A DNA stretch of 61,874 nt, filler included, from Diploschistes diacapsis (lineage: Eukaryota): the NCBI GenBank assembly GCA_023645945.1. It is 13 parts of 13 records of this genome, joined end to end, with 100 filler letters (N's around TTAATTAATTAA, not from the genome) between each part and the next. Parts side by side here need not be neighbours in the genome. Positions count along the whole stretch, not along the records: positions 3,043 to 28,710 come from JALAIB010000204.1; 12 more parts are not named here. One strand, 5' to 3'. Every line of letters starts with the position of its first letter. Position 1 is the stretch's first letter. Position numbers and translations under genes: made by a program. The notes beneath the pieces are model-generated. The model was not told the DNA's origin, did not search any database, and worked only from the letters and a program-made list of their open reading frames with translations. This document shows, piece by piece, positions 1-42,479 of the stretch.

Positions 1-139
1 TCTTAACATTTTCACCTTTCGTACAAATAATTTTATGTGTGGTTGTGGGGCTCAAAAGCTCGCTTAAAACTATCTAGCGCATCTACATTATAATGAGTAA
101 CCCGCTTTGTGGTGTAACCCGTTTTGTGGTGAAAGACGT
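1..139. mobile_element. Right end of a Fot1/pogo-type element or MITE, same family as 17062-17270
   Basis: Ends ...GTGGTGAAAGACGT followed by TA (140-141). Shares an almost identical ~65-bp internal block (TTTCGTACAAATAATTTTATGTGTGGTTGTGGGGCTCAAAAGCTCGCTTAAAAC) with the 17062 copy. Confidence 0.8.
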
Positions 140-869
140 TAGTGAAGATCTAGCATTCAATTATCCAATAATAATTTAAAAGGGTCTTTTTACGCGCCAT
201 AATTACGCTAATATATAGGTTTTAGGCAGCAATGAAAATCCCGCATTTTAATTAATTAGTGTCAGATTATTAACCTAAATGGGTTAGTTAGTCTGACTAA
301 GCAACTAATGGACTCGGAGGCTCTAGGAGGCTCTAGACCAGGCTAGAACCTAATAGAACACTTAGCTGCCGCATAAGCTTTCTTACTTGCTTGGAACAAA
401 GCGGGAGAACTTCGGACTCGACCAAGGGAATCTAGAAAAAGCTGAATTACTTATATGATGAATTTACCAACAAGGACCTTCAGAGGTACCTTCGTATCTT
501 AGTCCCCATCACTTCATGTCGTTTCGTTGTTTGTTCCGGATGCTGGACTCAGGAGACCATGACCAGGGCGACAGGATAACTTCGATAACTTCTTCCTATT
601 CATTGTCCGGCTCCATTCCTGCCAACTAAATGCCCGGGTTGGAGTAAGGACTCACGATCTCATAGGCAACCATGCGCCAGACGATTGTTCCCCATGAAGC
701 TACTGGAGCGCTCCTTCCTCTCCTATGTTAATATTTACTCAAGACTCGCTGGTGATGATGTCGTTGTCTCACGTCTTCGCGAAATTGAATTTCATCCTAT
801 CTTTTGTACCTTCATTTGCTATAATCATCTCCTACAAGCCTCGCCACATACCTCCATCAGTCACGGACC

Positions 870-4642: not shown

Positions 4643-4964
4643 AAGCGTGAATCCGGAAAGACTGTATCTAAGGATTGTGCTTCATGTAGTATGTCTTCGG
4701 GTTAATAACAGCCAGTCGTGTATAAGAAGACAATAATCAAGAAAATGGAAAAAATCACGCTCGAGAATGGTATCGTATGAGCAGCGACAAAAGTCGATAC
4801 GGGTATAGATTAAGCTGGGAAAATGTTTCTCCGACAGATCCATGCAGTCGGCCTTTCGACGTCGAGGTGGTAGAACGACCGGAGCTACTAATGAGTAACA
4901 AAACATCAAGGCAACACTTTACAAACGTTCATAAAACATCACAGAAATCTGCTGCTTTAGCATT

Positions 4965-6340: not shown

Positions 6341-9089
6341 TCATGACTTCCTTTTCGCAATAAAATACATTAGCAAGTCCCGTTCGCTACTCTCCAACAC
6401 AGGAACCATCTCAAACAACGAATGGCCGTATCTTTTATACAAGCATACCCCCAGATCCACCCCTTCCCGTCTAGTACTTACGTCCCCAGACTTTAGTGCC
6501 TTCGCTAATACTTCGAAGGCATCGTTGGGAACTTGGCAGGATTGGTCCGAGACCAGTCCTTTCAGAACCCTGACAAACCCCGAAGTTAGTTCAGGCTCTG
6601 CAGTCACACCACTTACCTCTGTGGGTTTTCTAGTAGGACTGCCAGTGGGACTTACCGATCGAGAACTTGCCATGGATGGAATCTTGCTATGAGATTCCGG
6701 CGGGTTCGCGATGATAGTCAAAGGCCGACCTCGTTTCTGGTCGACTGTGTTCGTGGTGTTCATGTCATTCGTGCTGGTACCTTGCTTTGGTCCAGCGTTG
6801 GAAACTACATCTCTGGCAGTCTCGTTGGTGTAGGTAATGGCCACATTCTTAGGTCCAGTAATATTGGTTGCTTTCCTGAGAGCAACCAGAGGACGCTTTG
6901 GAGCAGATGAGAGTGTCCCAATGGAAGAGCTTGCAGTAGCTGCGGCAGTCTTGGGACGAGTGGGGATCGGTCTGGTTGCAGGGCGAACAGCCTTAGTAGG
7001 CCCTGCTCCGCCAGTGGTCGATCCGGCTGATTTCGGACGTTGCTCGGTGGTAGATGGGGTCGATTCGAGGGACTGTTCCGGTATGAGTTCTGGAGCAGGT
7101 TCGGGTTTCTCTAGAGCCTTCTTCTTCGCGTTGATATGGTCGCGTATTGAAGGTCGATCGGTACGGTTGCCCGTAGCAGTAGGAGCGCGGGTTACTGTGT
7201 TTCCCTTGCTCGTAGATCTTTCGCTAGCCTTTCCGTTGAGGCTAGGATGGTTTGGATTGCCCTGATGTGCGAGAAGTGACTTTTGCTTGGCAGGTGGTAG
7301 TGATTCCATCATGATATCTGCACGCGAAGGCCAGATGGCGCTGCAACTCCAGTAAGCGGCTTCGGCTTTACCGCGGACAGTGGCATCAGCATCGGTCAAG
7401 CCTTTATGGACAATCTTCTGCACAGTGTCGGCACCGCCCTTCTCTTCGAGCAGGTGCTTTGAGTTGTGGTATTTGGCGAGTATAGCTTCGAGCCAGCCAA
7501 TTGCAAAGCCACGAAGTCCTTTGTTCTTCTCTTCCATAGTGTTTGAGACATGTTGCATATAGCGAGGTGTGTAAGTGGTTTTTGTGAGAACTGCGATGAC
7601 GGCAATGTTGGCCTCTGACGCAGTCTGATGTTTAGTGTTTCCACACTGTTTGATAAGGGGATGGATGACGGATTCGACAATGGGGTCCAGATCAGAGCCG
7701 GCCTTTTCGACTGCTTCGACAACCAGGCGTATGCCGTTGGTTGATAGAGTAGTGCGGAGCGACATGACAGCTTTGATAATTCCTTCTTGTAGAAGTCCTC
7801 GAATGACCGCGATGTATGCCGCATTGTATCGTTGAGGAGCACTTGAGACGGTGAGTCTTCTAAGAAAGATTACAGTGTCCTGGCGGGACTTCCAGTTGCC
7901 TTCAGCTTCGTTGCCTTCAAAGTGAGGTGCGAATACTTGCACTAGTTCGATGATCTTGATGCGGCAAGGGTCAAGGACAAAAGGCCGAGTGAGGTAAACT
8001 TCTCCATGTGAAATTTCAGCCGGAACGGTGGGATCCAAGGGGTTTGAAGGCGCCATGGGGTATGGAGTATTATCTTCGGCCTAGATAGCTGGTGAGTCAT
8101 TGTTGTTGCTCTCAGGAAGAAACGATATCGAAGAGCGCTTCGTACCTTTGCTACTAGTTTGACTGGGAGTCTGGGGGCGGGGACGTGAGAGAAATCCTCG
8201 GCCTAGATCTCGTCAGTCATAGGACAAAAAATGCCAAGGAACGCTTCCTACCTTTGCTGAAAGCCCAGCGACGTGGACAGGGGCAAGAGAGAAATCTTCA
8301 GCCTAGATCTCGTCAGTTAAAGAACGAACGACGTCGAGGAACGTTTCCTACCTTTGTTGAGAGTCTCGGGACGGGGACGACGGGAGAGAAATCTTCGGCC
8401 TAGATCTCGTCAGTCATAGGACGAAAATGCCAAGGAGCCTTTCCTACCTTTACTGAGAGCCTAGCGACGTGGACAGGGGCAAGAGAGAAATCTTCAGCCT
8501 AAGTCCTGTCAGTCTCAAGAACGAACGACGTCGGGGAGCGTTTCCTACCTTTGTTGAGAATCTCGGGACGGGAATGGGAGAGAACTCTTCGGCCTAGACA
8601 GCTTGTGAGTTATTGGTTGCTGTTGCTCTCAGGGGCATCTCCTACCTTCTCGATCGTGGGGGAGGGAGGAGGGGACGGCAGCAGGAGAGGCAATCGAAAG
8701 GCAGGGACAGAAGCCGGCACTGGCGTGAGAGGCTGGTTGAAAGCAACAACCGGAGGAGAAGCAGGCCGAGGAACAGACTCAGGAGAGTCAAGCACCAAAG
8801 GAGCCGGGGTATCAGTTGTAGAACAGTCGGTTGGAACAACAGCGGGCAGCGAAGGTTCGGATGGCTCTCGAAAGGCGATCTGAAAAACATCATTAGCATC
8901 TGTGTGCATCTAGATATGAAGGCATCAAAGTACGAATGGTGAGCTGATCTGCTCCCAGGGGATCCCTCGTGCTTTGCAAGTCATCCAGCAGCCGAATACA
9001 ATGCCGGCTCTGATTCCCTCGCCGACCGCCATGATGGCGATTAGAAGCCAAATGGCCACTTGCGAATGGAGATCTAAACGCGTTTCCAT
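6341..9089 (-). CDS. CLASP_N-domain (Stu1-like) protein, ~793 aa, eight exons (9089-8934, 8879-8646, 8593-8549, 8498-8448, 8399-8352, 8302-8252, 8202-8146, 8080-6341)
   Basis: Last exon has CLASP_N hallmarks (FEGNEAEGNW..R, SLRTTLSTNG, LIKQCGNTK, KGLTDADATVR..A..AYW). Seven GT-AG introns with CTRAC/CTAAT/CTCAC branch sites, all phase 0, give one continuous frame. Confidence 0.8.
8081..8645 (-). repeat. Tandem ~100-bp exon+intron repeat array
   Basis: Unit (minus strand): TAG|GCYGAAGATTTCTCT...AAAG|GTAGGAA...CTGACGAGATCTAG, about 5.5 copies with an alternating dimer pattern. Confidence 0.9.
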
Positions 9090-9956
9090 TGCTGTGACTA
9101 CTGGCCGATGATGGTTTACAAATTGGAAAGCAGTTTCTGATGGAAAGTGCTCAAAGTTTGATGGAAAGCGTGAAAAGTTGATGGGGGGACGTGGAAAAAG
9201 TCAAGATGAAAGTGAGGAAAGAAGAATGGAAGGACAATTGGGCGAGGGAAGGGCTTAAGTACTATCGGCGAGGGTCGCTTTGGCGACGCTGACGAAACTT
9301 TGACTAACCTTCTTCCCGGCAGTAATCGCCTTTAGACCGATCAAGCTCAACGCAGAGCGATAGATGATTGAGTAAACTGGGTAGTAGTCGAGGCCTCTCC
9401 GTATGATGAATCTCGTCGAGAAGTATGACGCTTTCCTATGGTATGGTGATAGAGGAAACCGCTCTTTTTGCCTTGTTTATCTGCTGTCCGCACAATCTGT
9501 GGCACATCCCGACATCGCAGCGCCAAGATTTCGCGTAGCGAGAGAACCTCCAAACATCGAGAGAGCCGATTAACGTTGAGCGCAGCAGCGACGTTGAAGG
9601 TTGAAGATATTCGAAATGGAGGGTTTTGAACAAAGAGGAATCAAGTCTGGCTTATACAAATATTGCTTTGACGTCTGACTGCGCTAGATTAGACGCGACG
9701 AGGTTACATCTGAAATCTGCGCACTCTGATTGGACCATATTGCTCCTGCCGGCGCCACAACCGAGATTAGCTCTTCGCTGCTTTTGTCTCTGGTGGATCC
9801 CAGCATACTGGTAGCTGACCAGGGTATACGAGCTTGACCTTAGGGAGATATCGAAGGTCACACACAGACTTATGTCTGTGACTCCCAATGCTCGTGTGCA
9901 GACAATACCATAATCTGCTGAGAGTCTGCGTTCATTGTTCTATTCCAACATGAACT

Positions 9957-10823
9957 ATGACGCGGTCTAAACCTCTAACTACGCCTAAACCACTACCAAC
10001 TCCACTCGCCATGTCGTCTACCATGTCTGAAGCCAGAGAACCATTAGCTTCGCCCATTCCCAGACGCTCAGCTTCCCAGAATGCTGAAGAGGAAGCATTC
10101 CGTCCAGTACCAAAGCCAAAAATGCCACAGCCCAAGCTTCGCTTCGAGGTCCGAGATCTCTCCCATCCTGGCGCCTTACTGTTCCTTGAGAAGGTGAATC
10201 CGACTAGAGCGATTAGTGACGCGGTGACAATCGTGGTGCAATCGCTCTACGAGCCATTCACCGGCGATGTGCCAAGCCCAGCTGTGCGCTCGATCACGCT
10301 AGTCTTGAAGCCTATGGGAGGCGTAGCCTATACTACCGGGAACGAACTCGATGACGACCACAAGGAGATCCATTTCTCGCTGGACTATATAGTACACGCT
10401 GCCTCAAGCGGCCGCGGAGCAGAAGAGATCCGGGGCGTGCTTGTCCATGAGATGGTCCATGTCTGGCAGTGGAACGGAAAGGGAAAGGCACCTAGTGGCC
10501 TCATCGAGGGCATTGCGGACTTTATCCGTCTTAAAGCCGCATATGCACCGCCTCACTGGGAACGGAAACCAGGTCCGTCCTGGGATGCTGGGTACGAGAA
10601 GACGGCCTATTTCCTGGAGTGGCTGGAGGATGTGTACGGTACTGGAAAGGTTGGGGATATGAATGAGAAGCTAAGGCAGGAGGAGTACCAGTCAGAAGAA
10701 TTCTGGAAAGCCCTGTTCGGGCAGAGTATCGAAACGCTTTGGAAAGCTTACAAAGAAGAGCACGAGAACAGGGAGGGCCTTAAACAGACCTCACAAGACG
10801 AGGCTTTGGACACAAATAACTGA
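9957..10823 (+). CDS. BSP/PBSP-domain protein (basic secretory protein family, HExxH zincin-like)
   Basis: GGVAYT..ELDDDHKEIHFS.DYI, GVLVHEMVHVWQWNG, GLIEGIADFIRL, PPHW, WDAGY..TAYFL.WLE. Confidence 0.88.
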   Translation: MTRSKPLTTPKPLPTPLAMSSTMSEAREPLASPIPRRSASQNAEEEAFRPVPKPKMPQPKLRFEVRDLSHPGALLFLEKVNPTRAISDAVTIVVQSLYEPFTGDVPSPAVRSITLVLKPMGGVAYTTGNELDDDHKEIHFSLDYIVHAASSGRGAEEIRGVLVHEMVHVWQWNGKGKAPSGLIEGIADFIRLKAAYAPPHWERKPGPSWDAGYEKTAYFLEWLEDVYGTGKVGDMNEKLRQEEYQSEEFWKALFGQSIETLWKAYKEEHENREGLKQTSQDEALDTNN

Positions 10824-11476
10824 AGTCCGACTTCTTGATGAAGGAGGAACCAGTTTCGCGAAATATTTACAAACCCTCAAAGTTGAGCGGGCGGGATCAC
10901 GCTGTTGGCAGGTCAACTTGGGTAGCCAGAGAGGTTTTCAACTTATAGTATATAGCTACTACAACAATAGGTGTGCATACAAAATGAATCTATTGCAAAT
11001 ATCGTAAATGATATTGTTCAAACGAGGAAACTGGTGCACAAAGCCGCTTGACTGAAACTTCGAACAGCTGCCTCACGGTTTGATACAAGCGTCAACACAT
11101 AGGGAAGATAAATTGTCAGAGCTACGTATCAGGTCTTACGGGAATCATAGTTGCAAGGGAAGCTTTGAAGAAGGATCAAATTGCACAAATCCGGTACAGA
11201 CTAAGCAATCAATTGGCCTGCTTCACAGGCACGAAACCCAAAAGCCCAGTATACCAGCTCCCCAACCATCAAACGCCGCACTGGTTGTGGGTTCAGTACA
11301 CAGTCCACCCACCTGGTATCAACCGGAGACGCGAGCACGTCTTCATTACGAGATATCAGTATCAGCCACAGCCACAGCTCCAGCGATTCGCTTCGTTTCC
11401 TCGTGATCCCTTTATCCCAGCAGAGACATCCATCAACAACCCGCTTCACCTAAGCTTGACAGAGAGACAGCACATC

Positions 11477-12626
11477 TCATTTCCTCAGCGCAGCTTCATA
11501 CAGACTCGTGATGACTCCAATGCCCGATGCAACGAGTACACCCTGGTAGCCTCCTGGGACGCTATAGTCGATCCTTTGCTTAGTCACTTGAGAGGGGGTT
11601 CCGAAATAGGCAAGGTCTTTGCTGTAGACAAGCCAGGTAACGAGAGCCTTGGAAAGATTGAAGCTAAGGGGGTCATACTGAGCCGCAGGATGCGAGTGCC
11701 TGCTGTGCCTGACCTCGCCATGCTTCGCCTTGAGTGCCAGGTTGAAGAAGTACGCGGCCGTCAAGGGCAGGATTACGCTGGTCAGGGACCAGAGACCAAA
11801 GGCCGACCAGAACTGTGGCGTGATGAGCATGAAAACATCATTGCTTGCGACGGGCCATTCAGGCATCCCGAGTGCGTCAATGGCTGGAAACATGAAGAGC
11901 GTCTTCCTCGGCAAGAGCTCGTTTATGAGACCAATGAACTCGATCAGAATAGCTATGCTTTCAATGGAGGCCGTGCTGCTGACCGCGCCACGAACGTTGT
12001 CGACGTATTCTGACACCCCTGAGGCCTTGTAGACTTCGCTCATCTTTGTGCTGACCGTCGCAGAATACTTCTCAATTTGCTTGGTGACAACGGCCGGCGA
12101 TGGTGGGAACGGCATGCTTTCGGGCAGCAACCGCCTTGCTGGAGTCTTAGGAGCCAGTGCCTGGCTTGTTGTCTCTGGAACAGCAGCATCGCTTGATGCC
12201 TCACTGTTGCGCTGCTGTTAGCCTGGATTTCCAGATCGCCAGCAACGCATGCGCCGAGCGCGATGCGGCGCCTTCTCGCACTTACGCTTCGAAATCCTCT
12301 TTCGCTTTTGTAACTCGTCTCCTTGTTGGCTTGGACTCTACTAGAACAGTGGTACCGGAACTGTTTCTCTTGACGGGTGAGGTGGCGCGCTTGAAGAAGG
12401 TGGAGAGAGAAGGGTCCTTGGATAGTTGCTCCTGGTTTGCTTGCAGGTGTTCGGTCAATGCAGCCAAAAGAGGATCCCTATTCAAGCCTTTCCGGCTGCC
12501 CAAACTGGTCAGCTTGCGACACGTCAATGTCCAGCATTCAAGCACGTACTTGACCCCTACTTGGTCGGCAAGAGCCTCAAGCTCGCCTTTACGCTTTTGA
12601 TTGAGCCCAATCACGGTAGTCGACAT
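11477..12626 (-). CDS. Conserved ascomycete membrane protein with N-terminal helical (SAP/HeH-like) motif, three exons
   Basis: LNQKRKGELEALADQVG start. Introns GTACGT..CTGAC.CAG and GTAAGT..CTAAC.AG. C-terminal TM segments ending IGVITSLYEAALRK. Confidence 0.65.
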
Positions 12627-12935
12627 TGCGGTGAAGGACTGTTTTCGCAAAACCAAAATCTATATGATCGAGAAAGCTACAGAGTAGAAATACGAATGTG
12701 GTAAATGGGTTGTTCAAGAGAGTGTACGCAATGATAGCGATAGTGATACAAAGAGGCAGCTGTTGATTGTTATTGTGGAGGAGGCTGGTTGTTTACTTTA
12801 GATCGCCAGCCAGGGCGCGTGATTGGCTCGCGCCATCCATGGGCTTGGCTTGGAAAGGAAACGCTCAATAGGAGGAATTTCCAGCTATTGGCCGTATTAT
12901 GTTGACTTTCGCAGGCTTAGATTTCTTCCTTTGTT

Positions 12936-13570
12936 CTACTGTGAGCCTAGCTTCTGCAACGCTTCACCCTCCGCCCGACACCCTACCCACTCGTCCATTC
13001 TGACGGCCCCAACCGCTGGAGATTCATAGAAGTCAATGCTAGGCTTGTTCCATTTCAGTACACTCCAATCCAACCTCTTTCCGCCAACGTTGAGTGTCTC
13101 TCGCGCCAAGCGCTTCAGTAAAGCCTTCCCATATCCCCTTCCTCTAAACTCAGGGCGTACGAAAAGGTCTTCCAGATAGATGCCCGGGGCCGCTTCCCTA
13201 GATTTCCGTCAGATTAATTGATCAACTTCCTACAGTGTATTGAAGGGGCTGGACCATGTCGAGTAATTGTGGAAATATAGAGCCATGCCCGCGCATCGGC
13301 CTTGTGATGTGGATGATCCCGGTGGAAATATGAGAAATGTTTTGGCAAACCCTTTGCTGGGGTTGGACGGAAAAGACAAAGAACTCAGGAGCTTCTGCTC
13401 CGTCGCCAGGACGGACTCTGCTGCTTTCTCATACTCGGCAAGTTCTTTGATCATTGCTAGAATAGTCGGTACATCTACGCATTGAGTCAGTATTTCCAAC
13501 TAATACATGGCCCCCAATACGTGCCTTCTTCGGTAGCGAATCTGATCGACGGTCCGGACTCGGCTGCCAT
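12936..13570 (-). CDS. GNAT N-acetyltransferase (SSAT/diamine acetyltransferase, Ats1-like), three exons
   Basis: DVPTILAMIKELAEYEK, GMALYFHNYSTW, PGIYLEDLFVRPEFRGRGYGK, LDWSVLKWNKPSIDFY. First intron is GC-AG. Confidence 0.9.
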
Positions 13571-14618
13571 GGGTGGAAACCGTTTGAAGCGCTTAAGGTT
13601 CAACAAAGGCTGAGCTATATGACAATTCTATCCTAATTGCGAGTCTGTGAAAGTTTTTGGGTATTTTTAGGCTCTGTGGATCTTTAGGCTTAGTCTGCAT
13701 AACCGGCTGATCTTACCTAAAAAGAATGCCAGATAACCATCATCTATTACGGGACTAGAAGGACCGATAATCGATCTTAGAATTTAGCAATATAAGGCAC
13801 GGGGTTCCGAAGGCTCAGGTGTAATGGGCAGTATCAATGGATAATCAAAAGGCCTCTGCGGAAACCTGAGAGGTAGCCCCTTTCTGGGTTTTCCTATTTC
13901 GGCCTGCTTACGGTGCTATCTATCATCCACCATTTTGCCCAGGTTAGGCACTCCAAAAGCGTCATGTGTCCTGCCCTTATTAAGATTGACGTATCATTAC
14001 TTCTTCTATAATTCCAATGCATTCATCTGTACGGACGGGATCTTAACCTGCGAAAACAGAAAACTTTAACGTTGGCTGCTGTCATCTCTTTTGGGACTGT
14101 TTCGCAACCTCTACCGCCGGTGTTGGGCTAAGCTACGTTTGATCTTTGACTCCTAAATATTGTATTACATAATCTGAAGCTCGCTTTTCTTCATATACTT
14201 TTAGAGCTCATTTTCAGGGTTTAATGTGTCGCTTTTTGAGGCTATTTAGATCATTAATATCTAGATAACCTTCTTCTTACAGTGTCAGCTGTGGCCCGTA
14301 TGTGCAATGCATAAAAGTTACTATGGGAACTAGATATAAGCTAAACTACTTGGCAGACACGCGATATGTCAAGCGTGAGCGGAGCAGGTAGTGCTCCTGA
14401 GACAACCGGTCATGACTGGCTCCACGCATCGAAGTCAATCCTCCCTGCCTTCTTCAGATCCAGTAGCATTCATAAGTTTAGCCCACATCGACTAGGGATG
14501 ATGCTGGCTTCATGCCGCTTGTACACTTTGTCTGTCATGGTGCACATGGTCGTATTGGGTAGGACGAGATACGGGATAAAGAGAGATGTTATACTCGGCC
14601 GTCCGCGTCATACAATAT

Positions 14619-16988
14619 CTAATTCGTCCATTCTAAGCAAGATTCCCCTTGCGCTTTCTTCAGTACTCCATTCTCTTGATTCAAAAGCTTGCGTTTCTTA
14701 TTTGGCGATAGCTCCTCAAACACGGTTCGTGATCTAACATTCAAGATGGGTTTCTTGAAGATGTAGGTTGCCCGCTCAAAATCGATTAACATTACTCGCT
14801 GCCTTTCTGAGTTCCATAGGAGGTTTGGGGATCTGATATCGTGTTGTTCGACCCCGGCTTCGCGAACTTCCTTCACGGTTCTATCGACCTGAAGATCAAG
14901 GTCCACCGTATCGTCTAATATAGTCCCGCCCCATGCCATCAAAAGCATGTGAGTTATTTTAACTCCTAGGTCGAGATAATATCGTCTTTTTAGTTTTATG
15001 TATCCCAGACACGCTGGGATGGCATACCCCTGCAGGCCCTTTAGATGCTCGTAAACGTTCGCTTCATGTAAGAGGCATGGAGCAAAAGCTCTGACTGTGG
15101 CCTTGGCGACCAAAACGTAACCATGCGACATAAGCATTATTCGAAACAAGGCTCCCCGTGCTCCTTGGAGGCCAAGTGGCTTACAGCCACAGTCAGGATC
15201 AACTGCAAGTTGTGCTCTAACCAGTTCCTTCAACATATCCGCATTAACAAGATGACGACCGTTGAGCGATGGGTGCAAATCAACATTTGGGCAGCACCTG
15301 TCCACTGCCGTGCCATGAATTATGCCCAACGCGCAATCCTGCGTGCAGTATGGTCTTTGTTTTTTTGGCTTTTCAGTCTTGCTGTTCTGGTCACTTCGTT
15401 GTTTTTGTCCAGTGCGTCTGTCGCTGGCTGCTGTTGAGGTCCGCATGCCTGGACCTCTTTGGTTGCGCGTGCTGCGTCTGGGCTTGCTCGGTGTGTCGGG
15501 GTCATCATCATCGTCCTTCTCCGTCGGATTGGGATTGCTAGGATGGCTGGGCTTGCAGCCCATGTTCTTTATTCGTTCCCGGGTAAGGTATGGAGATCTA
15601 TCGATCGGTCGGCCCTTCGGGCCTCTGTAGGCGAAGTTTGGAGTTTCCTTCCTCTCCGACTTAGGTATTGATCGCAAGACAGCCTCATAATCAACTTTGT
15701 ACCTTTCGAGCTTGCGTTTGGCATCCCGTCGCCAATTTTGACTGCGAGAGGTAGATTGAAAGGCCAAAAGGCACAGACTCAACACAATGCCGATCGCTGT
15801 TTGCGAGAGTAGCACATCAAGATCTTTGTCTTCCACGTCTTCGGAAGGTATAGCAAGGTGGTAATACAGCGTTTCCGGGTCTTCACTTCGAACATGAAAG
15901 AAAACAAATGCTTCTCCAGTGGTTAAGTAGCTGTATTCAAGGCCGTATTCGATCATATCGTGGAAAACCTGCGTGGAAACAGCTGCAACTAACTTGTCTG
16001 CATTGTACTGTAGCTTTTCTGCCTTGCCCCTCCTGTCTTCGTCCGTCATGCTCTCGGTATCCTCTTTGTAAGTCGGAATCGTAGCTCGATTAATAATCTC
16101 CTCTTTCAAGTTCATGTCACGAAATCCTGCTTTGAGATTGCCAATTGATAGTTTGTGTGGAGGTTTGTACTCCACTGTGAGCAGTAGCTGCCGATTTTCC
16201 TCGGTCTCGCCGTTTTCGCTGTAGACACAGAACCGGTCCGGGCGGGTAGAAGGCTTCGGCTCGGAGCTAGGTTCAATGGACGAGCTCGATGGCGGCGGAC
16301 TGTTCCGTGGCGTCCGAATGCTCAAAGCTTCCAGGACTTCCTCTGCCGCATCGCTCAAAGAATTGGGACCATTCTCAAATTTGATGCTCTTATTCAGGCC
16401 AAATTGGGTCTGGGCCTCCGGAGTTTGGGAGAGATTGTTAATGATGCTTGTCACGATATTCTCCACCGCTATCTGCTCGTAGAAGCGTAGGGCTTGTTCG
16501 TCTGCCAGCCTATTTCGATTCAAATCCTCTCCAAGCTCTTGCAAGTATTGAGTGGATTTGAAACAGCGTTGGCCAGATTGACCGTCTGGATGGAAGTATT
16601 GATACGCCTTTTCGAACAATCCATGCAGGGTTTCAGGAAGCCCTTCCCACAGCCGTAAATTCTTGGGATAAAACTTGTTTTTTGGGCTTGTGGTGCCACC
16701 CTTTGTCGTCCAATTTGGATTGGTCTCAACAGTGAAGGCGGCTTGGAGATGAAGGTGGCATAATTCTAGGCATTCAGCCAAAGTTGTCTTTTGCGTACGC
16801 TTTTCCGCTATTCTTTGTTGCTCTTCCGCTATTCGTTGTTGCTCTTCCGCTACCGTTGCTCGTTCCGCTGCTCGTTGTTGCTCTTCCGCTGCTCGCTTTT
16901 GCTCTTCCGCTACTTGTTGTTTCGCTTCCGCTAACTGTCGTTCTGTTGCCTCGAGTAGAGCTCTGAGGCGCTCCTCCTGAGAAGACAT
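14619..16988 (-). CDS. Spok-family (spore-killer-like) nuclease-kinase protein, 789 aa, intronless
   Basis: Heptad coiled-coil repeats, then KTTL.E.L..CH and K.YPK.LR.W. Nuclease RPD(251)...EYK(275)PPHK. Cys cluster YCTQ.C.LG...CPN..LH. Kinase GARGALF, GYVLVAK(629), L.HE..VY..L..LQG..IP, HD(717)IRSPNLLWN.E..R.MLIDFE. C-terminal PNKKRKL NLS-like motif. Confidence 0.92.
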   Translation of the reverse strand: MSSQEERLRALLEATERQLAEAKQQVAEEQKRAAEEQQRAAERATVAEEQQRIAEEQQRIAEKRTQKTTLAECLELCHLHLQAAFTVETNPNWTTKGGTTSPKNKFYPKNLRLWEGLPETLHGLFEKAYQYFHPDGQSGQRCFKSTQYLQELGEDLNRNRLADEQALRFYEQIAVENIVTSIINNLSQTPEAQTQFGLNKSIKFENGPNSLSDAAEEVLEALSIRTPRNSPPPSSSSIEPSSEPKPSTRPDRFCVYSENGETEENRQLLLTVEYKPPHKLSIGNLKAGFRDMNLKEEIINRATIPTYKEDTESMTDEDRRGKAEKLQYNADKLVAAVSTQVFHDMIEYGLEYSYLTTGEAFVFFHVRSEDPETLYYHLAIPSEDVEDKDLDVLLSQTAIGIVLSLCLLAFQSTSRSQNWRRDAKRKLERYKVDYEAVLRSIPKSERKETPNFAYRGPKGRPIDRSPYLTRERIKNMGCKPSHPSNPNPTEKDDDDDPDTPSKPRRSTRNQRGPGMRTSTAASDRRTGQKQRSDQNSKTEKPKKQRPYCTQDCALGIIHGTAVDRCCPNVDLHPSLNGRHLVNADMLKELVRAQLAVDPDCGCKPLGLQGARGALFRIMLMSHGYVLVAKATVRAFAPCLLHEANVYEHLKGLQGYAIPACLGYIKLKRRYYLDLGVKITHMLLMAWGGTILDDTVDLDLQVDRTVKEVREAGVEQHDIRSPNLLWNSERQRVMLIDFERATYIFKKPILNVRSRTVFEELSPNKKRKLLNQENGVLKKAQGESCLEWTN
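16800..16936 (-). repeat. 21-bp tandem repeat encoding AEEQQR(I/A) heptads of the Spok-like coiled coil
   Basis: Plus-strand units TTCCGCT(A/G)(T/C)TCGTTGTTGCTC, about six imperfect copies. Confidence 0.85.
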
Positions 16989-17061
16989 TGATCGTGCGGG
17001 ACGTAGGTAGTAAACAAAACAAACACTCTGTTTACATCCAAGCGAAGCGCGGGACTAAATA

Positions 17062-17270
17062 ACGTGTTTCACCACACAACGGCCCACCCCACAAAGCGGC
17101 TCACAGTCCCTGCACCTTCGTATAATGTAGTTGAAAACAAATTTAGTTTCGTACAAATAATTTTATGTGTGGTTGTGGGGCTCAAAAGCTCGCTTAAAAC
17201 CATCTAGCGCCATTACATTATAATGTAGTGAGCCGCTTTGTGGTGTGATCCGCTATGTGGTGAAACACGT
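17062..17270. mobile_element. Complete 209-bp Fot1/pogo (Tc1-mariner superfamily) MITE
   Basis: ~43-bp imperfect TIRs ACGTGTTTCACCACA...CACAAAGCGGCTCAC / GTGAGCCGCTTTGTG...TGTGGTGAAACACGT. TA target duplication at 17060-61 and 17271-72. Confidence 0.92.
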
Positions 17271-17701
17271 TAGTGCATTTTAATTACGTAATTAGACGCA
17301 TAGCCGAGTAGTGAGTAGTCGTGTAAAACGTGTTGATACAGTGATTTCTTTTGTAAACACGAACTCTTAACTCTCGTACTTAGGTACCGAACGGGCCTGT
17401 GCTGCTTTGTTCATACATTCATAGACCAATGTTGGAAACATAGTCCCTCATGAAAGATCTTAATGAACTCCTGTTCTTCTCTTCGTGTTGCAAGATAACA
17501 GAAGAACCTATCTATATATTGACGTCCGTTTGGCTCCTTTCTTCTGTTGCCAAGCCGCCTCGCTCCCGCTTCCAAGGTTTGTAATGTTGTTAGGCGTGGG
17601 GAGAGAGATGAGACCTTCGACAGCCTGTCTTCCTTCCAAGTCTGCCGGAAGTGATTGCAACTCACTTGTAGGAGCTGTTTTAACATTCTCTAGCCTGCAT
17701 A

Positions 17702-19692
17702 ATGGTCAGCTGGGGTAGTATTCTCAGCACAGCTGGCGGAAGAGATCGGAGCACCCTCCGAGATGACATGCGACATCGTAGGTTTCGTTCAACTTCATCT
17801 GCATCTACTTTTGTTGTGGTGAGCCATTTTCTCATAACTGCTTAGTGCTCTCTGCCTCGAATGGCGAGGCTGTGGAGTCTGCCTACCCCGCCAACGAAGT
17901 AACAAAAGTCGCTCTCCGCTTGAAATACCAGATCGAGCAAGTCATACCTATTGAATTGGATGAGGGAAAGATCACAAGAGCCAACTCTCCTGTAATCACC
18001 CGCAAGGTCGTCCATGCGGCCAAGCAAGCTGGTGGCAAAGAATACCCGTCATGCGTCATCTACTGCTTGCTTGTGTGCAAGAGGTGGTTCAAGAGACAGG
18101 CATTGCTTGAGTTGTGGGACTCCGAGCTTCATGAAGCTAGAGCGGTAGCATGCGATGTGCTCGCGAAAAAGCTGTACGTGCAATTTCGCTGCTTGTACAT
18201 ACGGATCTGATTTGCCATTAGCATTGAATCCGAAGAGGACGAGGAGTTTCTTATGCAGGAAACGCTGCTTAAGCGATACTCTATCCTTGTCAATGGGCGC
18301 GAGACAAAGCCGGCGAACGCGGTAGAGCGAGCGGTTGACCTCCATGCTCTCCGTGTGATTGGCTCTTCTGGCTACCAGAAATGCATCGGCTATCTCTGGC
18401 GCGGGTGGCTAATCCAGGACGAGGACGATCCTGGAAAGTTTAAAGATTATGGGGACAAGAACAAGGTGGATTACTGGATACACTTCGATCCTGATAGAAT
18501 GAGGACACCACAGTACCAGAACTTTCTGCAAATCTCTGTTAGCTTCATCTATCTAGTTCTATACTCGATCGCCATCAATACTATCAACAGTACGGGAGAT
18601 TTAGATATAATCGAAGGTATCCTGTATATCTTCACCGCAGGCTTCATCTTCGACGAGGTGTCCAAGCTCTGGAAAGTTGGCCGCTACTACATCGGCTTCT
18701 GGAACGTCTTCAACCTGATACTCTACGCCTTACTTACCGTCAGCTTTGTTACGCGCATGATTGCCCTGGGCTATGATCTGGGTGACCCCGACAGAGAGCG
18801 ATTCAACGTCCTCAGCTACAACTTCCTAGCCTTCAGCGCGCCCATGTTCTGGTGCCGGCTGCTCCTATACCTCGACAATTTCCGGTTTTTTGGTGCAATG
18901 CTCGTCATCCTGAAAGTCATGATGAAAGAGTCCCTGATCTTCTTCCTCCTGCTGGTCGTCATCTCCATCGGTTTTCTCCAGGCCTTCATCGGCATGGACC
19001 AAGTCCGCGGCGCCGAGGGCGTGACACGCGACATCGTGCAGGCCATGGCCAATAGCCTGATGCAAGCGCCCGACTTCAATGGGTTCAACGAATTCGCGCC
19101 GCCCTTCGGCATCATCCTGTACTACTTCTACACAGGCGTCGTCATGGTCATCCTGCTCAACATCCTCATCGCCCTCTTCAACAGCGCCTACGAGAACGTC
19201 ACGGACAACGCGATCGACGAGTACCTCGGCCTCTTCGCCGCCAAGACGATGCAGTTCGTGCGCGCCCCGGACGAGAACGTCTTCATCCCGCCATTCAACC
19301 TCCTCGAGTTCTTCGGCCTCGTCCTCCCGCTCGAGTGGTGGATGCCCAAGGCCCGCTACCAGCAGCTCAACCGCGCCGTGATGGGCGTCATCTACGCGCC
19401 CATGCTCCTCGTCACGGCCTGGCTCGAGACGAGGACGGCGAGGAGGGTGAACGAGAATCGCGTCCGGCACGAGGCGGACGACGATAGGGTCCAGGAGTGG
19501 GAGCAGATGGGCGAGGAAGGTGGGGTGGACTTCGATGCGGATGGGTGGGCGAAGACGGTGAGCGAGTCGAAGCCGAATGTGGAGACGGACGCGGCGGTGC
19601 TGGAGATCAGGGAGTTGAAGGCTAGGGTTGAGGCGCTCTCGAGGGTTATGGAAAGCATCGAGGGAGGGGGAGAGAAAGGGAGGATGAGTTGA
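17702..19692 (+). CDS. YVC1: Vacuolar TRP cation channel (TRPY1), three exons
   Basis: VTKVALRLKYQIEQVIP.E, AVDLHALRVIGSSGYQKCI.YLWRGW, FFGAMLVILKVMMKES, ILLNILIALFNSAY, QFVRAPDENVFIPPFNL. Confidence 0.95.
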
Positions 19693-20060
19693 TAGCCGAG
19701 TTGATGTGGTTAGGATAGCCAGAGCGAGAAATCTTGGCGTGATCTGGGAGCATATGTTTATATCTGGGAATTATCTTGGGATTGTCATCACGGTGTTTGA
19801 CCCACCAAGGCCGAACTTACACCCAGCTAAACCAGGACGCAAATGCATATATATATGTGACAACCAACCATCTCTTATCATCCGTTCTAGAAAAAGCCAA
19901 TCGCGGGTGTTTGTTACTGCTGTCGTATCCCGAGCTACAGAAAACTGCTCTACAGGCCAACGTTACCGGGTCCAGAAGCACGAGCATCCCCTCCCCCATC
20001 ATACCCCACCTAAGGAAACAAGCACCAGCATGACCGCCCTACTCAACCCTTGAAAAACCG

Positions 20061-21792
20061 CTACCCCTTCTCCTCCCCCTCCTCCAGCCCATGCGTCTTC
20101 ACCTTCGCCATCTCCTCCTCATAATCCTTACCAACCCTCTTGTCCGCCCCCGCTTCCTCCCCTTCATCCCCCGTCTCGCTGCCCCGAACAGTACTCGCCC
20201 TGCTAACATCCCTGCTCCTCGCACTCCGCACTCTCATACCCAGCTTTTTATCCTCCTTCGTGCCGTCCTCCGCATCCCCACCCTTCCAATCCGCCGCCTT
20301 CGCCTCCGGCACAGCCTCGCCCGGGCCGGGCTGCGTAATAACCTGCGCCAGCGCCGCGCCATTCGCCACTGCCTCGGGCCCTGCTGCTGCTGCTGTGCTA
20401 CCGGGGCTCCCCTTCGGCACCCGCCACACCACGGCCAGCTTTTCGAGCGCACGTGTGCCCTTCTTGCTGCTCCCCTTGATGCCGTCCATCGCGTCCCACT
20501 CGATCTCGAAGACGCCGCGGTCCGAGGCTTGGGCGGCGACGTCGCCCTGCACCATGTGTGCGGGGGGCAGGCCCTCGAAGAAGACGTTGAACCACACGTG
20601 CGCGACGGAGGTGACCATCGTCCAGCCGTAAGGGGCGCGGTTGCGGCGCTCGAGATCGATGCAGACGTCCGAGGTGGGGACGAGGATTGGGGCGGAGGGG
20701 CGGAAGATGACGGCTTTGCCGCCGATCTCGGAGCCCGCGCGGTCGACTTTGGAGGAAGGGGTGAGGGGCTGGCTGGTGGAGTCTTCGATGAGGGGGGAGC
20801 CGTCGGAGATGGTGTGTTTGATTGTGGAGTGGTCGAGGGATGGGGAGGAGGGGTTGACGGTGGGTTTAGCGAGGGATTTGAGGGAACCGTTGGGACTGGT
20901 GAGGTTGGAGAGGTGAGAGGTGGAGGAGCTGTTGGTGCTGTTGTTGGCGGGGTTGTCGGAGGAGTCGACGATGAGGCGCTCATGCTTGGTGAAGGTGTGG
21001 ATGGTTTTGATCTTGCGTCCTTCCTCGGTGTAGCCTTCTACTGCGACCTTTACGCCATCGCGCAGGCCCCAGGCATGGACCTCGAGAATCTGGACGGGGC
21101 GCTCGACGTAAACTTTGCCCGTCCGTGTCCAGGTGTCGACGTAATTCACCCAGCGCAGTTGGCTGGGTATGCTGACGCCAGGCCCGAAGCCAGGACGCAT
21201 GCGACGGCTTGTGAAACGGGATAACGCATCTTCCTTCTTCCAGCCTTCTTGGCTGACAAGATAGCTGCAGGCGATAGTTCCACTTCGCCCTTTACCGGCT
21301 TTACAATGTACAACAACCACCCTCTTCGTTCCCTTCTCGACGTCGAGGTCTTTCAACCAGTTTCTCATGCTGGCCATGATGTTGGGTATCAGGGCGAAGG
21401 GTGGTGGGTGGTGGTCCGGCCATGGGTAGTGGTGTATTCGGTCATACACCTCGGCATCAGGATACCCCGTCCCTTCCGCACGGAACTCCCATATCGACCA
21501 GTCCTTGCCATGCTTGTAGTCTAGCCACTTGACAAGCTCGTCGGTGGGGTTTCTGTATGCTCGCTGAGGGTATGTCGAGGAGGGCCCCGAAGTAACAACA
21601 ACTAGAGCGGTCAGCTCAGCAATCAATCTGTTGCGGAGAGTAGCACGTTACTATAGTCGGTAACATAGCAAAGATCGAGTCCTGCTTCTGGATGTCGTGT
21701 GCGCGGACCAGCGACTATCTGGCGGAGGATTGAGGCCTGGATATCGTTAACCGTTAGCGACGTATGGGCAGCAACATCGTTCCACCCACCAT
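20061..21792 (-). CDS. TEP1: PTEN-like phosphoinositide phosphatase, three exons (first coding exon is ATG only)
   Basis: ASILRQIVAGPR..H...LDLCYVTD, YRNP, WPDHHPPPF, catalytic VHCKAGKGRSG, GVSIPSQLRW..Y. Confidence 0.9.
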
Positions 21793-22216: not shown

Positions 22217-23323
22217 ATGTCGTTAACGAACTGTCGATTCTATGAGGAGAAGTATCCGGAGATTGAGTCGTTCGTTATGGTGAGCCCTAGGAGGAAACGC
22301 CTGTTTCAAAAGCTTAATAGCTAAACCAATGGTTCTTTAGGTGAACGTAAAGCAGATAGCGGAAATGGGCGCCTACGTCAAGCTACTTGAATACGACAAC
22401 ATCGATGGCATGATTCTTCTTTCCGAGCTCTCGCGGAGACGTATCAGGAGTATCCAGAAGCTTATTCGCGTGGGGCGGAATGAGGTTGTCGTGGTGCTCC
22501 GTGTGGACAAGGAGAAAGGTAGGCAATGAGCTATGGCGGAGCCGACTTGACCAGCATATGCTTAGCTTTGCCCAGGTTATATCGACTTGTCGAAACGAAG
22601 AGTGTCAGCCGAAGATGTTGTCAGGTGCGAAGAGAGGTACAACAAAGGCAAGATGGTAGCATCGATAATGCGGCACGTGTCCGAAAAGACCAAAACGCCA
22701 ATGGAGGAGCTGTATTCGCATATTGGGTGGCCACTGAACAAGAAATACGGGAACGCGCTAGACGCCTTCAAGATGTCGATAACGTACGTCTTGCTCTTGA
22801 AATCACGGAGCTTGGCTTTTACTAAACGTCTGCCAGGAATCCCGATATTTGGGCCGGCATTACATTCCCATCGGACGTGGTCAAGGACGAGCTTCAATCC
22901 TACATTGGCAAACGTTTGACGCCTCAGCCAACGAAGGTGCGCGCTGATGTTGAAGTGACTTGTTTTGGGTATGAAGGTATCGACGCGGTCAAGGAAGCTC
23001 TGCGTGCCGCGGAGACAAAAAACACCGCCGAGACACAGGTCAAGGTTAAGCTCGTCTCCCCACCGCTCTACGTCCTCACATCGCAAACTCTGGACAAGAA
23101 CTCAGGCATCACGATGCTAGAACAAGCGATCAAGGAGATCGAGGGAAACATCAAGGCAGCTGGAGGCGGATGCGTTGTCAGGATGGCCCCGAAAGCAGTG
23201 ACCGAAAACGATGACGCCGAGCTGCAGGCGTTGATGGAGAAGCGGGAGAGAGAGAACCAGGAGGTCAGTGGAGACGAAGACGAAAGCGAAAGCGACGAGA
23301 ATCCGGTGAAGGAGACTATCTGA
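22217..23323 (+). CDS. SUI2: Translation initiation factor eIF2 alpha, four exons
   Basis: [70 protein letters not shown]. Confidence 0.98.
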
Positions 23324-23940: not shown

Positions 23941-26900
23941 ATGTATATTAATTCGTCTGCTTTGCATGGCCTATTGCTAATACCACACTTCCAGGCCATC
24001 ACTTGTTGACAACGCTCAGATAAAGTCGGCCACGCTACACAACCCTTCTCCCATCTATACTCATACCTACATATTACCCTTTTTGATTATATGGCCCGTC
24101 TTCCTAGCATACTACTTATCTGAAGAGAGATACAATCGGTATATCGGCGCGCCAGAATGGACCTTCGTCTGGACCGGCTCGATCATAACTCTGCAGTCAC
24201 TGGCTTGGTTGTGCACCAAATGGAGCGTTGATTTGAATGCACGCTTCACAGCGTCGAATGCCAAGGGACCAAGAGAAGCCAGACTCATCAAGATACACCC
24301 TGTGGAAAATGCTGGAGCTGCTGAGATTTGCAAGCTGGAACGGGATACAGTCCGTACCTCATGCCGGACTTCTCAATGTTGTGCTGACACAAGTGCAGTC
24401 AGCGGGCCAAAAAAACCTTTCCTTCCTTTTCCAGAAGCGGCGCTTCTTCTATAATAGCGATAAGGGCAGCTTTGCGCCTCTGTCATACGCCATTGACGCT
24501 GAACCAAGACCTCTGATCGGTACCTTCCAAGAGTCCAAAGGCCTTAAGATTCTGAAGGAGGTGGAGGATACCCAGCAACGCTATGGTACAAATACCTTTG
24601 ATATTCCGGTACCGACTTTTACAGAATTGTTCCAGGAGCATATGGTCGCGCCGTTCTTCGTCTTTCAGCTCTTCTGCGTTGGTCTCTGGCTTCTTGACGA
24701 ATATTGGTACTATTCCCTCTTTACACTCTTTATGCTGTTCGCATTCGAAAGCACTGTTGTATGGCAGAGACAGAGGACTCTCAACGAGTTCCGCGCCATG
24801 AGCATTAAGCCTTACGATATCTGGGTCTATCGTGAGCGAAAATGGCAGCAGATCACAAGCGACAAACTTCTCCCTGGCGATCTCGTCTCCGTCGCACGAA
24901 CTAAAGAGGACAGCGGTGTAGCTTGCGACATGCTGATTGTTGAGGGTACAGCTATCGTCAACGAGGCCATGCTATCGGGGGAGAGTACACCGCTATTGAA
25001 AGATTCTATTCAGCTTCGGCCAAGTGATGCTCGTCTCGAGCCGGATGGTCTTGACAAGAATTCGTTCCTCTGGGGCGGGACAAAGGTTTTGCAGGTCACT
25101 CACGGGGCTGCAACTGAAGATGCACCAGAAAGCGTTCCGACTTTGGCATCGGGTGTGGAGCCGCCTCCGGACAAGGGCGCCATGGCCATTGTCGTCAAGA
25201 CAGGTTTCGAGACAAGCCAGGGTAGCCTCGTACGTACCATGATCTACTCTACGGAGCGGGTGTCAGCAAACAACGCCGAAGCTTTATTGTTCATTCTGTT
25301 CCTCCTAATATTCGCTATTGCAGCATCGTGGTACGTCTGGCAGGAAGGAGTTAGCAAAGATAGGAAACGGTCCAAGCTTTTGCTGGACTGTGTCCTTATT
25401 ATCACGAGTGTTGTTCCTCCGGAATTGCCTATGGAGCTTAGTCTGGCAGTGAACACGGCTTTGGCGGCGCTTGCAAAGTACGCCATCTTTTGCACGGAGC
25501 CATTCAGGATTCCTTTCGCTGGACGTATTGATGTCGCTTGCTTTGACAAGACTGGTACCATCACTGGTGAAAATCTTGTTGTCGATGGCGTTGCTGGTCT
25601 TATGTTGGGGAAGGCTCAGGGTAACGAGAAGAATGGAGGGGACAGCCGCCTTGTCAAAGTCTCTGATGTCGGATTTCAAACGACCTTAGTACTCGCAACT
25701 GCGCACGCTCTTGTGAAGCTTGATGAGGGCGAGATCGTCGGTGACCCCATGGAAAAGGCCACACTGACATCTCTTGGCTGGACGCTGGGCAGCAAAGACA
25801 CGCTGACTAGCAGAGATGCAGCTGGAGCACAAGTTCAGATCAAGCGACGCTTTCAGTTCTCGTCCGCCCTGAAGCGGCAATCGTCTGTTGCCACTGTCAC
25901 CAGTACGGACAGAGCGACTTCAAGGAAATCGAGATTGACATTTGTCGGCGTCAAGGGTGCCCCTGAAACTATTCGAACGATGTTGGTCGATGTCCCACCA
26001 TACTATGAGGAGACCTTCAAGTACTTCACCAGAAACGGTGGTCGTGTCCTTGCTTTAGCCTACAAGTATCTCTCCACGGATTCCGAACTTGGTCAAAACC
26101 GAATCAACGATCTCCAACGTGAAAAGGTCGAGAGGGACCTTCTCTTTGCAGGATTCTTGGTTCTACAATGTCCTCTCAAGCCGGACGCGAAGAATGCCAT
26201 CCGCATGTTGAATGAAAGCAGTCATCGCGTGGTCATGATTACGGGCGACAATCCCCTAACCGCTGTGCATGTCGCTCGTGAGGTGGAGATTGTCGATCGA
26301 GAAGTCCTAATCTTGGATGCACCGGAGCATGACGAGAGTGGAAAGCAACTCGTTTGGCGCAGTGTTGACGACAAGACAAACATTCCAGTAGATCCAACAA
26401 AACCGTTAGACGACAGTATCATCCAGCAAAAGGACCTGTGTGTGACAGGCTACGCCCTAGCCAAGTTCAAGGACCAGATCGCGTTCAAACAATTGCTGAG
26501 GTATGTTTGGGTTTACGCTCGCGTTTCGCCGAAGCAAAAGGAGGAGATCTTGCTCGGGTTGAAGGCCCTTGGTTACCATACCCTTATGTGTGGTGATGGT
26601 ACTAACGATGTCGGTGCTCTCAAGCAAGCGCATGTCGGCGTTGCTCTACTCAATGGTACCCAGGAAGACCTCAACAAGATCGCTGAACACTTCAGGACTA
26701 CCAAGATGAAAGAAATCTACGAGAAGCAAATTTCAATGATGAAAAGATTTAATCAGCCGGCACCGCCTGTTCCTGTTCAGATAGCTCATTTATACCCACC
26801 TGGACCCAGTAATCCTCATCACGAAAAGGCTATGGAGCGAGAGGCGCAAAAGAAGGGCGGCCTGCAAGTGGTTGCTGTGAACTCGGCTACGGCTACGCAA

Positions 26901-27966
26901 GCAAATGGCTCAGCCTCGACTTCACAGGCATTACAAACCATAAACATGACGACCCAGCAGCAGAAGGAGCAGAAAGCTAGGCAAAACGCTGCTGCTCTGG
27001 CCGACAAATTCACGAGCACAATGATGGAGCAAGAGTTAGACGATGAGCCGCCGCAGATCAAACTTGGCGATGCCTCTGTTGCTGCTCCTTTCACGAGCAA
27101 GCTGGCAAACGTCATTGCTATTCCCAACATTATCCGGCAAGGCAGGTGTACTCTGGTTGCCACCATCCAGATGTACAAGATCCTTGCGCTGAACTGCCTA
27201 ATTAGCGCCTACAGTCTAAGTGTTCTGTATCTGGAAGGTATCAAATTTGGAGATGGTCAGGTGACGATTAGTGGAATGCTCATGAGTGTCTGCTTCTTGT
27301 CCATCTCACGAGCAAAGGTAAGCCTGTATACGCACTTGTAGGATCAACGATTAATCAAGTGACCAGTCAGTCGAGGGCCTATCCAAAGAGCGACCGCAGC
27401 CCAACATCTTCAATCCCTATATCATTGGGTCCGTGCTAGGCCAATTTGCGATCCACGTCATCACGCTCATCTACATCTCGAACTATGTCTACCAGGTGGA
27501 GCCCAAACAAAGCGACGTCGACCTCGAAGGCGAATTTGAGCCCTCGTTACTCAACAGCGCCATCTATCTTCTGCAGCTCGTCCAGCAAATATCCACCTTC
27601 GCCATCAACTACCAAGGGCGGCCCTTCCGTGAGAGTCTCTCTGAGAACAAGGGCATGTACTATGGCATTCTCGGAGTCACGGCTGTCGCGTTCTCTTGCT
27701 CAACGGAGTTTATCCCGGAGATCAACGAGCAGTTGAAGCTCGTCAAGTTCACAGATGCATTCAAGACTACCCTGACCGCCGTGATGGTCTTGGACTACCT
27801 GGGTTGCTATGTGATAGAGAAGGTTTTGAAGGCCTTGTTTAGCGACTTCAAGCCCAAGGATATTGCCGTCAGACGGCCAGAGCAGTTGGAGAAGGAGACC
27901 AAGAGGAAGCACGAAGAATATCTAGCGGCGGAGAAGGAAAAGGAAATAAAGGCGGGCAAAGCATGA
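23941..27966 (+). CDS. SPF1: P5A-type ATPase (Spf1/ATP13A1), four exons
   Basis: PFFVFQLFCVGLWLLDEYWYYS, LSGES, VVPPELPMELS, CFDKTGT, KGAPE, ITGDNPLTA, MCGDGTNDVGALK. Start codon is split by intron 23943-23994. Confidence 0.96.
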
Positions 27967-40821: not shown

Positions 40822-40921
40822 NNNNNNNNNNNNNNNNNNNNNNNNNNNNNNNNNNNNNNNNNNNNTTAATTAATTAANNNNNNNNNNNNNNNNNNNNNNN
40901 NNNNNNNNNNNNNNNNNNNNN

Positions 40922-42470: not shown

Positions 42471-42479
42471 TAATTGATT

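Follow-up and report, generated by a model that had tools for sequence, protein, structure and literature searches.

What does an intact gene of the SPOK spore-killer family do among the core genes of a lichen-forming fungus? We addressed this question in a 61,874-nucleotide stretch (hereafter the window) of the Diploschistes diacapsis assembly GCA_023645945.1. The window joins 13 parts of 13 records end to end, with 100 filler letters between each part and the next, and its positions 3,043 to 28,710 come from JALAIB010000204.1. An open reading frame (ORF) at 14619-16988 on the minus strand starts with ATG, has no introns, and encodes 789 amino acids plus a stop codon, with zero internal stops under the standard code. 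Judged by its sequence, this ORF is an intact member of the SPOK family, and its membership is secure. We propose, with a probability of roughly 0.55, that it is a selfish toxin-antidote gene, whether still active or active until recently, at or near fixation, with at least one isolate carrying a broken allele. The gene may be described as a candidate driver.

The window protein aligns with published Spok homologs from end to end. Family PF27653 (PF27653.1), named SPOK2_N in Pfam 38.1, is recorded for exactly this protein and for all 117 of the 117 matches in a homology search, and the three nearest Atlas clusters have it at 0.97-0.99. The Fusarium protein FOXG_12586, which appears as 'Reference Spok' in Supplementary Table 2 of PMC12693581, matches the window protein with an E-value of 6.8e-130, 36% identity, and 92% query coverage. 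Furthermore, AJ80_09569 from Polytolypa hystricis, presented in PMC6660238 as a close relative of the Podospora Spoks, is colinear with residues 65-789 (BLASTP; 34% identity over 767 columns; E 3e-125). No Podospora protein was among the best 120 of 431 matches in a search seeded with the Metarhizium protein P0110, or among the best 120 of 634 matches in one seeded with FOXG_12586.

Catalytic residues of both the nuclease and the kinase are retained. We aligned the window protein with 37 homologs picked from the 117 matches (alignment A1, 38 sequences). In the first conserved motif, KTT..CH, residues T68, E72, and H78 never vary, and 36 of 38 sequences have C77; the YPK.LR.W motif follows at residues 106-114. 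The putative PD-(D/E)xK nuclease has its lysine (K275) in 38/38, E273 in 37/38, and D251 in 34/38 sequences. The kinase residues K629, E642, D717, N722, and D736 are invariant across all 38. The A1 profile also matches solved protein kinases in the PDB over positions 613-747 (Cdc7, E 1.7e-5), and a local Pfam scan gave weak, sub-threshold APH and choline-kinase matches at 717-744. The basic motif PNKKRKL near the C terminus is a likely nuclear localization signal. At columns with at least 92% conservation, the window protein departs from the family only three times (Q252R, L553A, and G630A); its close relatives do so 0 to 8 times.

These results bear out part of the original prediction, which had been made from the DNA alone. 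All of the motifs that it listed, including the Cys cluster (Table 1), lie at the residues claimed. It had also ascribed to the protein the domain order of the Podospora SPOK proteins. This order holds in direct alignments with FOXG_12586 and the Polytolypa protein. For SPOK3, the match was made via the published architecture, which has a C-x3-C-x13-C-x5-H-x7-H pattern, a catalytic lysine at K240, and a kinase aspartate at D667 (passages on SPOK3 in PMC6660238). The last Cys/His spacer differs, being x7 in SPOK3 and x6 in the window protein.

The gene has no signature of repeat-induced point mutation (RIP), again as predicted. Its TpA/ApT index is 0.70 and its (CpA+TpG)/(ApC+GpT) index is 1.26. 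The corresponding values in AT-rich blocks of the same window are 1.05-1.13 and 0.55-0.68. A RIP-like process thus acts in the genome and has spared the gene.

Work on other fungi indicates how such a protein could kill and protect. As PMC6660238 reports for SPOK3, a K240A substitution abolishes killing, for which the nuclease domain is required, while the toxicity of a D667A protein is relieved by wild type, the kinase domain being required for resistance. The fragment SPOK3(1-490) also kills, according to the same account. In E. coli and yeast, SPOK1 with an inactive kinase causes DNA damage that depends on its nuclease (described in PMC9972908), and Spok proteins are reported to accumulate in nuclei (PMC4022471). 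By analogy with Podospora SPOK1-4, the window protein most likely acts in a comparable way: the N-terminal coiled coil would dimerize it, and the basic C-terminal motif would bring it into the nucleus. The PD-(D/E)xK domain (D251, E273, and K275) would damage DNA and so serve as the toxin. The kinase (K629, D717, and D736) would neutralize this toxicity in cells that go on producing the protein, and loss of the gene would be fatal to nuclei or spores. We infer dimerization, nuclear entry, K275-dependent DNA damage, and D717-dependent restraint because every corresponding residue has been kept.

The gene occupies the same locus in every sequencing run that contains the region. There are three such runs, from three studies, with shares of 0.98 (X1, probably the source), 0.45 (X2), and 0.39 (X3). 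In alignments to positions 9900-21700, all three runs have similar depth over the gene and over its flanks, and an X3 contig spans from the ORF start to the YVC1 side. Thus, there is no presence/absence polymorphism among these runs. Divergence of X2 from the window, taken contig piece by contig piece, is ~1-2.6%: 1.9-2.5% for pieces inside the gene and 0.9-1.7% for neighboring coding pieces.

Intact and frameshifted alleles appear to coexist at this one locus. The putative N-terminal coiled coil is encoded by a repeat of variable length, a 21-nt tandem array, which in X2 is shorter by a net 42 nt (deletion at 16831-16884), the length of two repeat units. X2 also has a 1-nt deletion three codons ahead of the stop codon. 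Both changes resemble those described for Spok homologs in PMC6660238, where variable repeat length and stop-moving 3' frameshifts are said to occur. A further difference in X2 is a 1-nt insertion in codon 355, which belongs to a near-invariant motif (Table 1). The insertion has a depth of 94/94 on one contig, and X3 covers the same place without it. When the frame of the otherwise unchanged window is shifted at codon 355, a stop is reached after 13 codons. If the insertion is real, the X2 allele would be broken within the nuclease domain and would lack the kinase.

The most ambitious reading of these alleles joins three claims. The intact allele would be an active single-protein killer-antidote, the frameshifted allele a natural sensitive (null) allele, and heterozygous apothecia would show spore killing. 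We consider the three together unlikely.

SPOK homologs in lichen metagenomes are numerous, variable, and often damaged. We scanned JGI metagenomes with A1 and kept 76 homolog loci, with flanks of up to 10 kb. Among the 48 loci chosen for long matches and examined for open frames, the frame stays open across the match in 39, and nine have internal stops (1-10 each). The homologs fall into 15 groups at 90% identity, as many as five of them within a single metagenome series, and identity between some groups is 80-84%. One group is found in three or more genomic contexts, which have nothing in common beyond ~3.4 kb around the gene; this shared segment is 96-98% identical and sharply bounded (L036:9517-12892, L035:1082-4459, and L042:10119-13635; the first two are from one metagenome series). 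No terminal inverted repeats were found at the boundaries of this unit.

The lichen homologs evolve faster than annotated housekeeping genes beside them. The ratio of nonsynonymous to synonymous substitution rates (dN/dS) is 0.32-0.68 in the 10 homolog pairs with a dS of at least 0.03. Among pairs with smaller dS, four have ratios of 0.15-0.30, two have 1.48 and 3.98 (from very few changes), and two have no ratio. Within the same pairs of loci, flanking NmrA, FHA, and UNC-50 genes have ratios of 0.09-0.21, while the SPOK homolog has 0.48-0.66. Taken together, the paralogs, broken copies, raised dN/dS, and duplications of a ~3.4-kb single-gene unit suggest that the family behaves selfishly in lichens, sometimes without a Starship.

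The flanks of these homologs vary in kind. Some are made up of housekeeping genes; others hold DUF3723, patatin, Tc1-type transposase, Pkinase_fungal, ankyrin, or NLR-like genes, or AT-rich blocks. Examples of SPOK homologs beside DUF3723, patatin-like, Tc1-type transposase, and Pkinase_fungal genes were seen at L010:21087-22142, L009:14483-15448, and L056:12420-13754 and 15778-18213. DUF3723 and patatin-like genes are families that have been described as typical of Starships.

Several observations weigh against a toxin-antidote function for the window gene. Identity to the validated Spok clade is only 34-36%, and a profile of the nuclease region (residues 215-440; alignment A4, 14 sequences) retrieved zero PDB sequences at E<=10. 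At residue 252, beside the catalytic D251, the window protein has R where 36 of 38 homologs have Q. The window allele has, 72 bp upstream of its ATG, a repeat of the kind known as a miniature inverted-repeat transposable element (MITE), which could alter expression. The X2 frameshift is known from a single contig. Furthermore, several unannotated or accessory-type ORFs in the metagenome flanks also have high dN/dS (0.34-1.26), so the contrast drawn above is valid only with respect to annotated housekeeping flanks. Finally, kinase-dead Fusarium homologs were toxic in yeast in only two of six cases and without effect in the other four, as reported in PMC12693581, and PMC6660238 takes the view that the single-copy homologs of 'clade I' are unlikely to be drivers. 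Homology alone predicts driver or killer activity poorly.

The window gene could instead be a SPOK homolog without killer activity. It would then be either a host-retained nuclease-kinase with a cellular role or a neutral remnant whose frame is still open. The Fusarium and 'clade I' reports just cited are in keeping with such a gene, as are the single copy in the window, the housekeeping surroundings, the native composition, the shared locus in 3/3 runs, and the substitution at residue 252. The frameshift of one allele would mean that the gene is dispensable. However, the catalytic residues of both domains are kept, and as few as three departures from conserved columns would be unexpected in a sequence that had long been neutral. 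A conserved host gene would also be unlike what we see in lichens, where homologs are multi-copy, often broken, and fast-evolving, and where 0/76 homolog loci share the position of the window gene. We regard the absence of killer activity as possible, although we do not favor it over a selfish toxin-antidote gene that is, or was recently, active.

A toxin-antidote gene need not act in meiosis. It could work mainly in vegetative cells, by post-segregational killing after hyphal fusion or nuclear loss. SPOK3 is reported to kill vegetative cells (PMC6660238). In Fusarium oxysporum, a spok gene is described as lowering the loss of a dispensable chromosome, with a fitness gain that needs hyphal fusion (bioRxiv 10.64898/2026.10.04.756499). 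However, the window gene is surrounded by core housekeeping genes and has no dispensable chromosome to stabilize. A mainly vegetative role therefore seems improbable to us.

The gene appears to be a resident of its locus. The original prediction had placed it between a GNAT gene and YVC1, in a housekeeping setting and with no captain recombinase, and each of these points found support. The GNAT and TRPY1/YVC1 genes flank it, with further core genes around them (Table 1). We found no DUF3435 captain in ~95 ORF translations (a few were scanned twice, and ORFs of at least 90 aa number 153 in the window), although RIP-degraded AT-rich blocks could conceal a relic. Only one SPOK-like copy was detected in the 62-kb window by tblastn. 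The codon usage of the gene is native: the distance in relative synonymous codon usage between gene and neighbors is 0.133, and distances between neighbors are 0.094-0.165. Its GC content is also like that of its neighbors. The same prediction had inferred a lineage-specific insertion. This was not borne out, given the native codon usage, the same locus in 3/3 runs, and nearest relatives that are lichen fungi at ~50% identity.

Positional comparison with the metagenome homologs gave no shared neighborhood. Ten neighbor genes from the window, used as queries, had no match in the 76 homolog loci (tblastn, E<=1e-5), and thus no homolog shares this position. The homologs at these loci are at most 49% identical to the window protein and are therefore not orthologues, so the comparison is silent on the GNAT-YVC1 interval in relatives.

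High-copy repeats lie in both intergenic regions that flank the gene. The MITE-like element upstream folds as a strong hairpin (z -8.86). The bin that contains it (16992-17385) has a depth of 7576 in X1, 26167 in X2, and 128 in X3, against ~90, ~90, and ~4 elsewhere, which places the element at ~30-300x the single-copy level across the three runs. A second, partial copy is found at window positions 17-144. X3 lacks the element here, joining 17059 directly to 17271 with TA at the junction, so the MITE has been mobile in recent times. For the repeat downstream of the gene, depth in bin 14234-14627 is 852 (X1), 1369 (X2), and 293 (X3), against ~90-100, ~90, and ~4, and contigs of all three runs break or rearrange there. 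The window holds no other copy of this downstream repeat. The idea that the two flanking repeats are the two ends of one element was rejected, as there is zero similarity between them.

A recent horizontal arrival, whether as Starship cargo or as some other fresh lineage-specific insertion, would account for part of this picture. Spok genes are often carried by Starships, single-gene units of ~3.4 kb have moved in other lichen fungi, none of the 76 homolog loci is syntenic with the window, and there are repeats on both sides of the gene. However, those repeats are mutually unrelated, the ~95 ORF translations scanned include no captain, and codon usage and GC content match those of the neighbors. 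No relative exceeds 54% identity, and hence there is no candidate donor. The locus is also common to runs that diverge by 1-2.5%. We give the arrival scenario very little credence. Because there is no recognizable Starship, the composition is native, and the site is the same in every run with the region, we consider the gene a resident that is fixed or near-fixed, as our preferred reading holds, and not a fresh insertion.

In our trees, the window protein belongs to a branch of the family whose named members are all lichen-forming Lecanoromycetes. An exhaustive phmmer search over 1.84 billion representatives gave 2479 matches at E<=1e-3, 1623 at E<=1e-10, and 725 at E<=1e-30. The best relatives are about 49-54% identical, none in the databases exceeds 54%, and those that are named come from the lichen fungi Varicellaria, Circinaria, Lobaria, Stictis, and Xylographa. 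We built one tree with FastTree (75 rows chosen from 348 proteins) and one with an IQ-TREE quick search (51 rows). In both, the window protein falls in an 8-row clade with a support of 100, as well as in a wider clade (22 or 26 rows; support 99-100). Apart from unnamed metagenome rows, every member of these clades is from the Lecanoromycetes, and FOXG_12586, Polytolypa, Beauveria, and Metarhizium sit in a different clade. The terminal branch of the window protein is long (0.54-0.57, compared with a median of 0.22-0.24).

The family itself is neither new nor rare. Its homologs were reported in 2014 as prevalent across all major Pezizomycotina classes bar two basal ones, and as patchy, multi-copy, and often pseudogenized (PMC4022471, in its survey of homologs). 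Thus, the window gene is one more homolog of a large, well-described, and already widely reported family. Our literature search found no paper on Spok homologs in lichen fungi specifically, and Spok goes unmentioned in the preprint on the Tangerine Starship.

Podospora SPOK1-4 are among the closest known systems. Like them, the window gene is intronless and encodes a protein in the range of ~730-790 aa. It shares a putative coiled coil encoded by a variable repeat, domain 1, a PD-(D/E)xK motif with its lysine, a Cys/His cluster, and a kinase with its aspartate, followed by basic residues near the C terminus. As in SPOK, one allele has a variant that changes the frame at the very 3' end. [quoted passage not shown] It also differs in lying within a lichen-only clade and in having no Starship found in the window.

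The Fusarium FuSpoks (FOXG_12586, FuSpok1, and FuSpok2) are of the same Pfam family and architecture. PMC12693581 describes FuSpoks as enriched on accessory chromosomes, with 33/408 within Starships, and names FuSpok1 and FuSpok2 as the only ones toxic in yeast among the six tested. The window gene differs from them in lying among core genes. The 'clade I' homologs (e.g. Fs_82228 / NECHADRAFT_82228), compared by description only, occur once per genome at a stable site, which resembles the one copy in the 62-kb window and the shared locus in 3/3 runs. The clade II pattern is that of several near-identical copies per genome; the lichen relatives of the window gene are multi-copy, and lichen metagenomes include duplicates that are 96-98% identical.

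Toxin-antidote systems outside the family are more remote. The wtf killers of Schizosaccharomyces pombe are single-gene poison-antidote meiotic drivers that use two transcripts and encode membrane proteins. They are unrelated to SPOK in sequence and mechanism. SPOK has been likened to bacterial restriction-modification and toxin-antitoxin addiction modules (in the discussion offered by PMC9972908). Both set a nuclease toxin against an enzymatic antidote, and in both loss of the locus is lethal. SPOK differs in joining the two activities in one eukaryotic polypeptide, and there is no shared family.

The apparent coexistence of alleles at one locus is the most useful lead to come from this analysis. 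The reproductive genetics of lichen fungi is almost unstudied because crosses are not possible in culture. Since intact and frameshifted alleles apparently occupy one site, distorted ratios could be sought by genotyping the ascospores of single natural apothecia. An active gene would mean that SPOK-type toxin-antidote drive also occurs in lichen-forming fungi. If the killer/sensitive-allele reading is true, it would be the first case of meiotic drive known from lichens, and SPOK would have a functional branch specific to them.

Table 1. Features of the SPOK-family gene and its surroundings. Positions refer to the window.
Feature	Position	Strand	Details
SPOK-family ORF	14619..16988	-	789 aa + stop; PF27653
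21-nt tandem array, N-terminal	16799..16933	-	6.6 copies, score 158; codes for the N-terminal 'heptads'
Domain-1 motif KTT..CH (aa 67-78)	16755..16790	-	Alignment A1
Putative PD-(D/E)xK nuclease core, D251...E273-x-K275	16164..16238	-	A1 conservation, sequence level
Codon 355, near-invariant LTTGEAF motif	15924..15926	-	X2 1-nt insertion behind 15924
Cys/His cluster C548-x3-C552-x13-C566-x5-H572-x6-H579	15252..15347	-	Each residue 37/38 in A1
Kinase core (aa 609-738): glycine loop, K629, E642, HD717..N722, D736-F-E	14775..15164	-	Profile matches, invariant residues
Basic C-terminal motif PNKKRKL (aa 762-768)	14685..14705	-	Present in family consensus
MITE-like element, ~211 bp	17060..17272	.	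45-nt inverted arms; 72 bp upstream of ATG
Second high-copy repeat	14234..14410	.	~210 bp downstream of SPOK stop codon
RNase III	3428-4681	-	
CLASP	6341-8080	-	
BSP peptidase	9954-10823	+	
GNAT acetyltransferase gene	12936-13499	-	Two reading-frame pieces; exon 12936-13208, Acetyltransf_1, E 1.7e-13
TRPY1/YVC1 calcium-channel gene	17782-19692	+	
Dual-specificity phosphatase	20061-21647	-	
eIF2-alpha	22566-23320	+	
P5A ATPase	23981-27341	+	

Some further features of the window were recorded. A search of positions 13500-17800 against Rfam gave zero matches. The AT-rich blocks at 30001-32000 and 40001-52000 have 28-35% GC and RIP-like dinucleotide indices, and the sole transposase relic found, a DDE_1 fragment at 30435-30770, lies within a 28% GC block. 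Two ORFs have the GFA domain of the glutathione-dependent formaldehyde-activating enzyme family (2192-2986 on the minus strand and 36973-37548 on the plus strand). Within the region of the dual-specificity phosphatase gene, positions 20000-21000 have 64% GC and strong, opposite swings in GC skew (-0.47 then +0.42).

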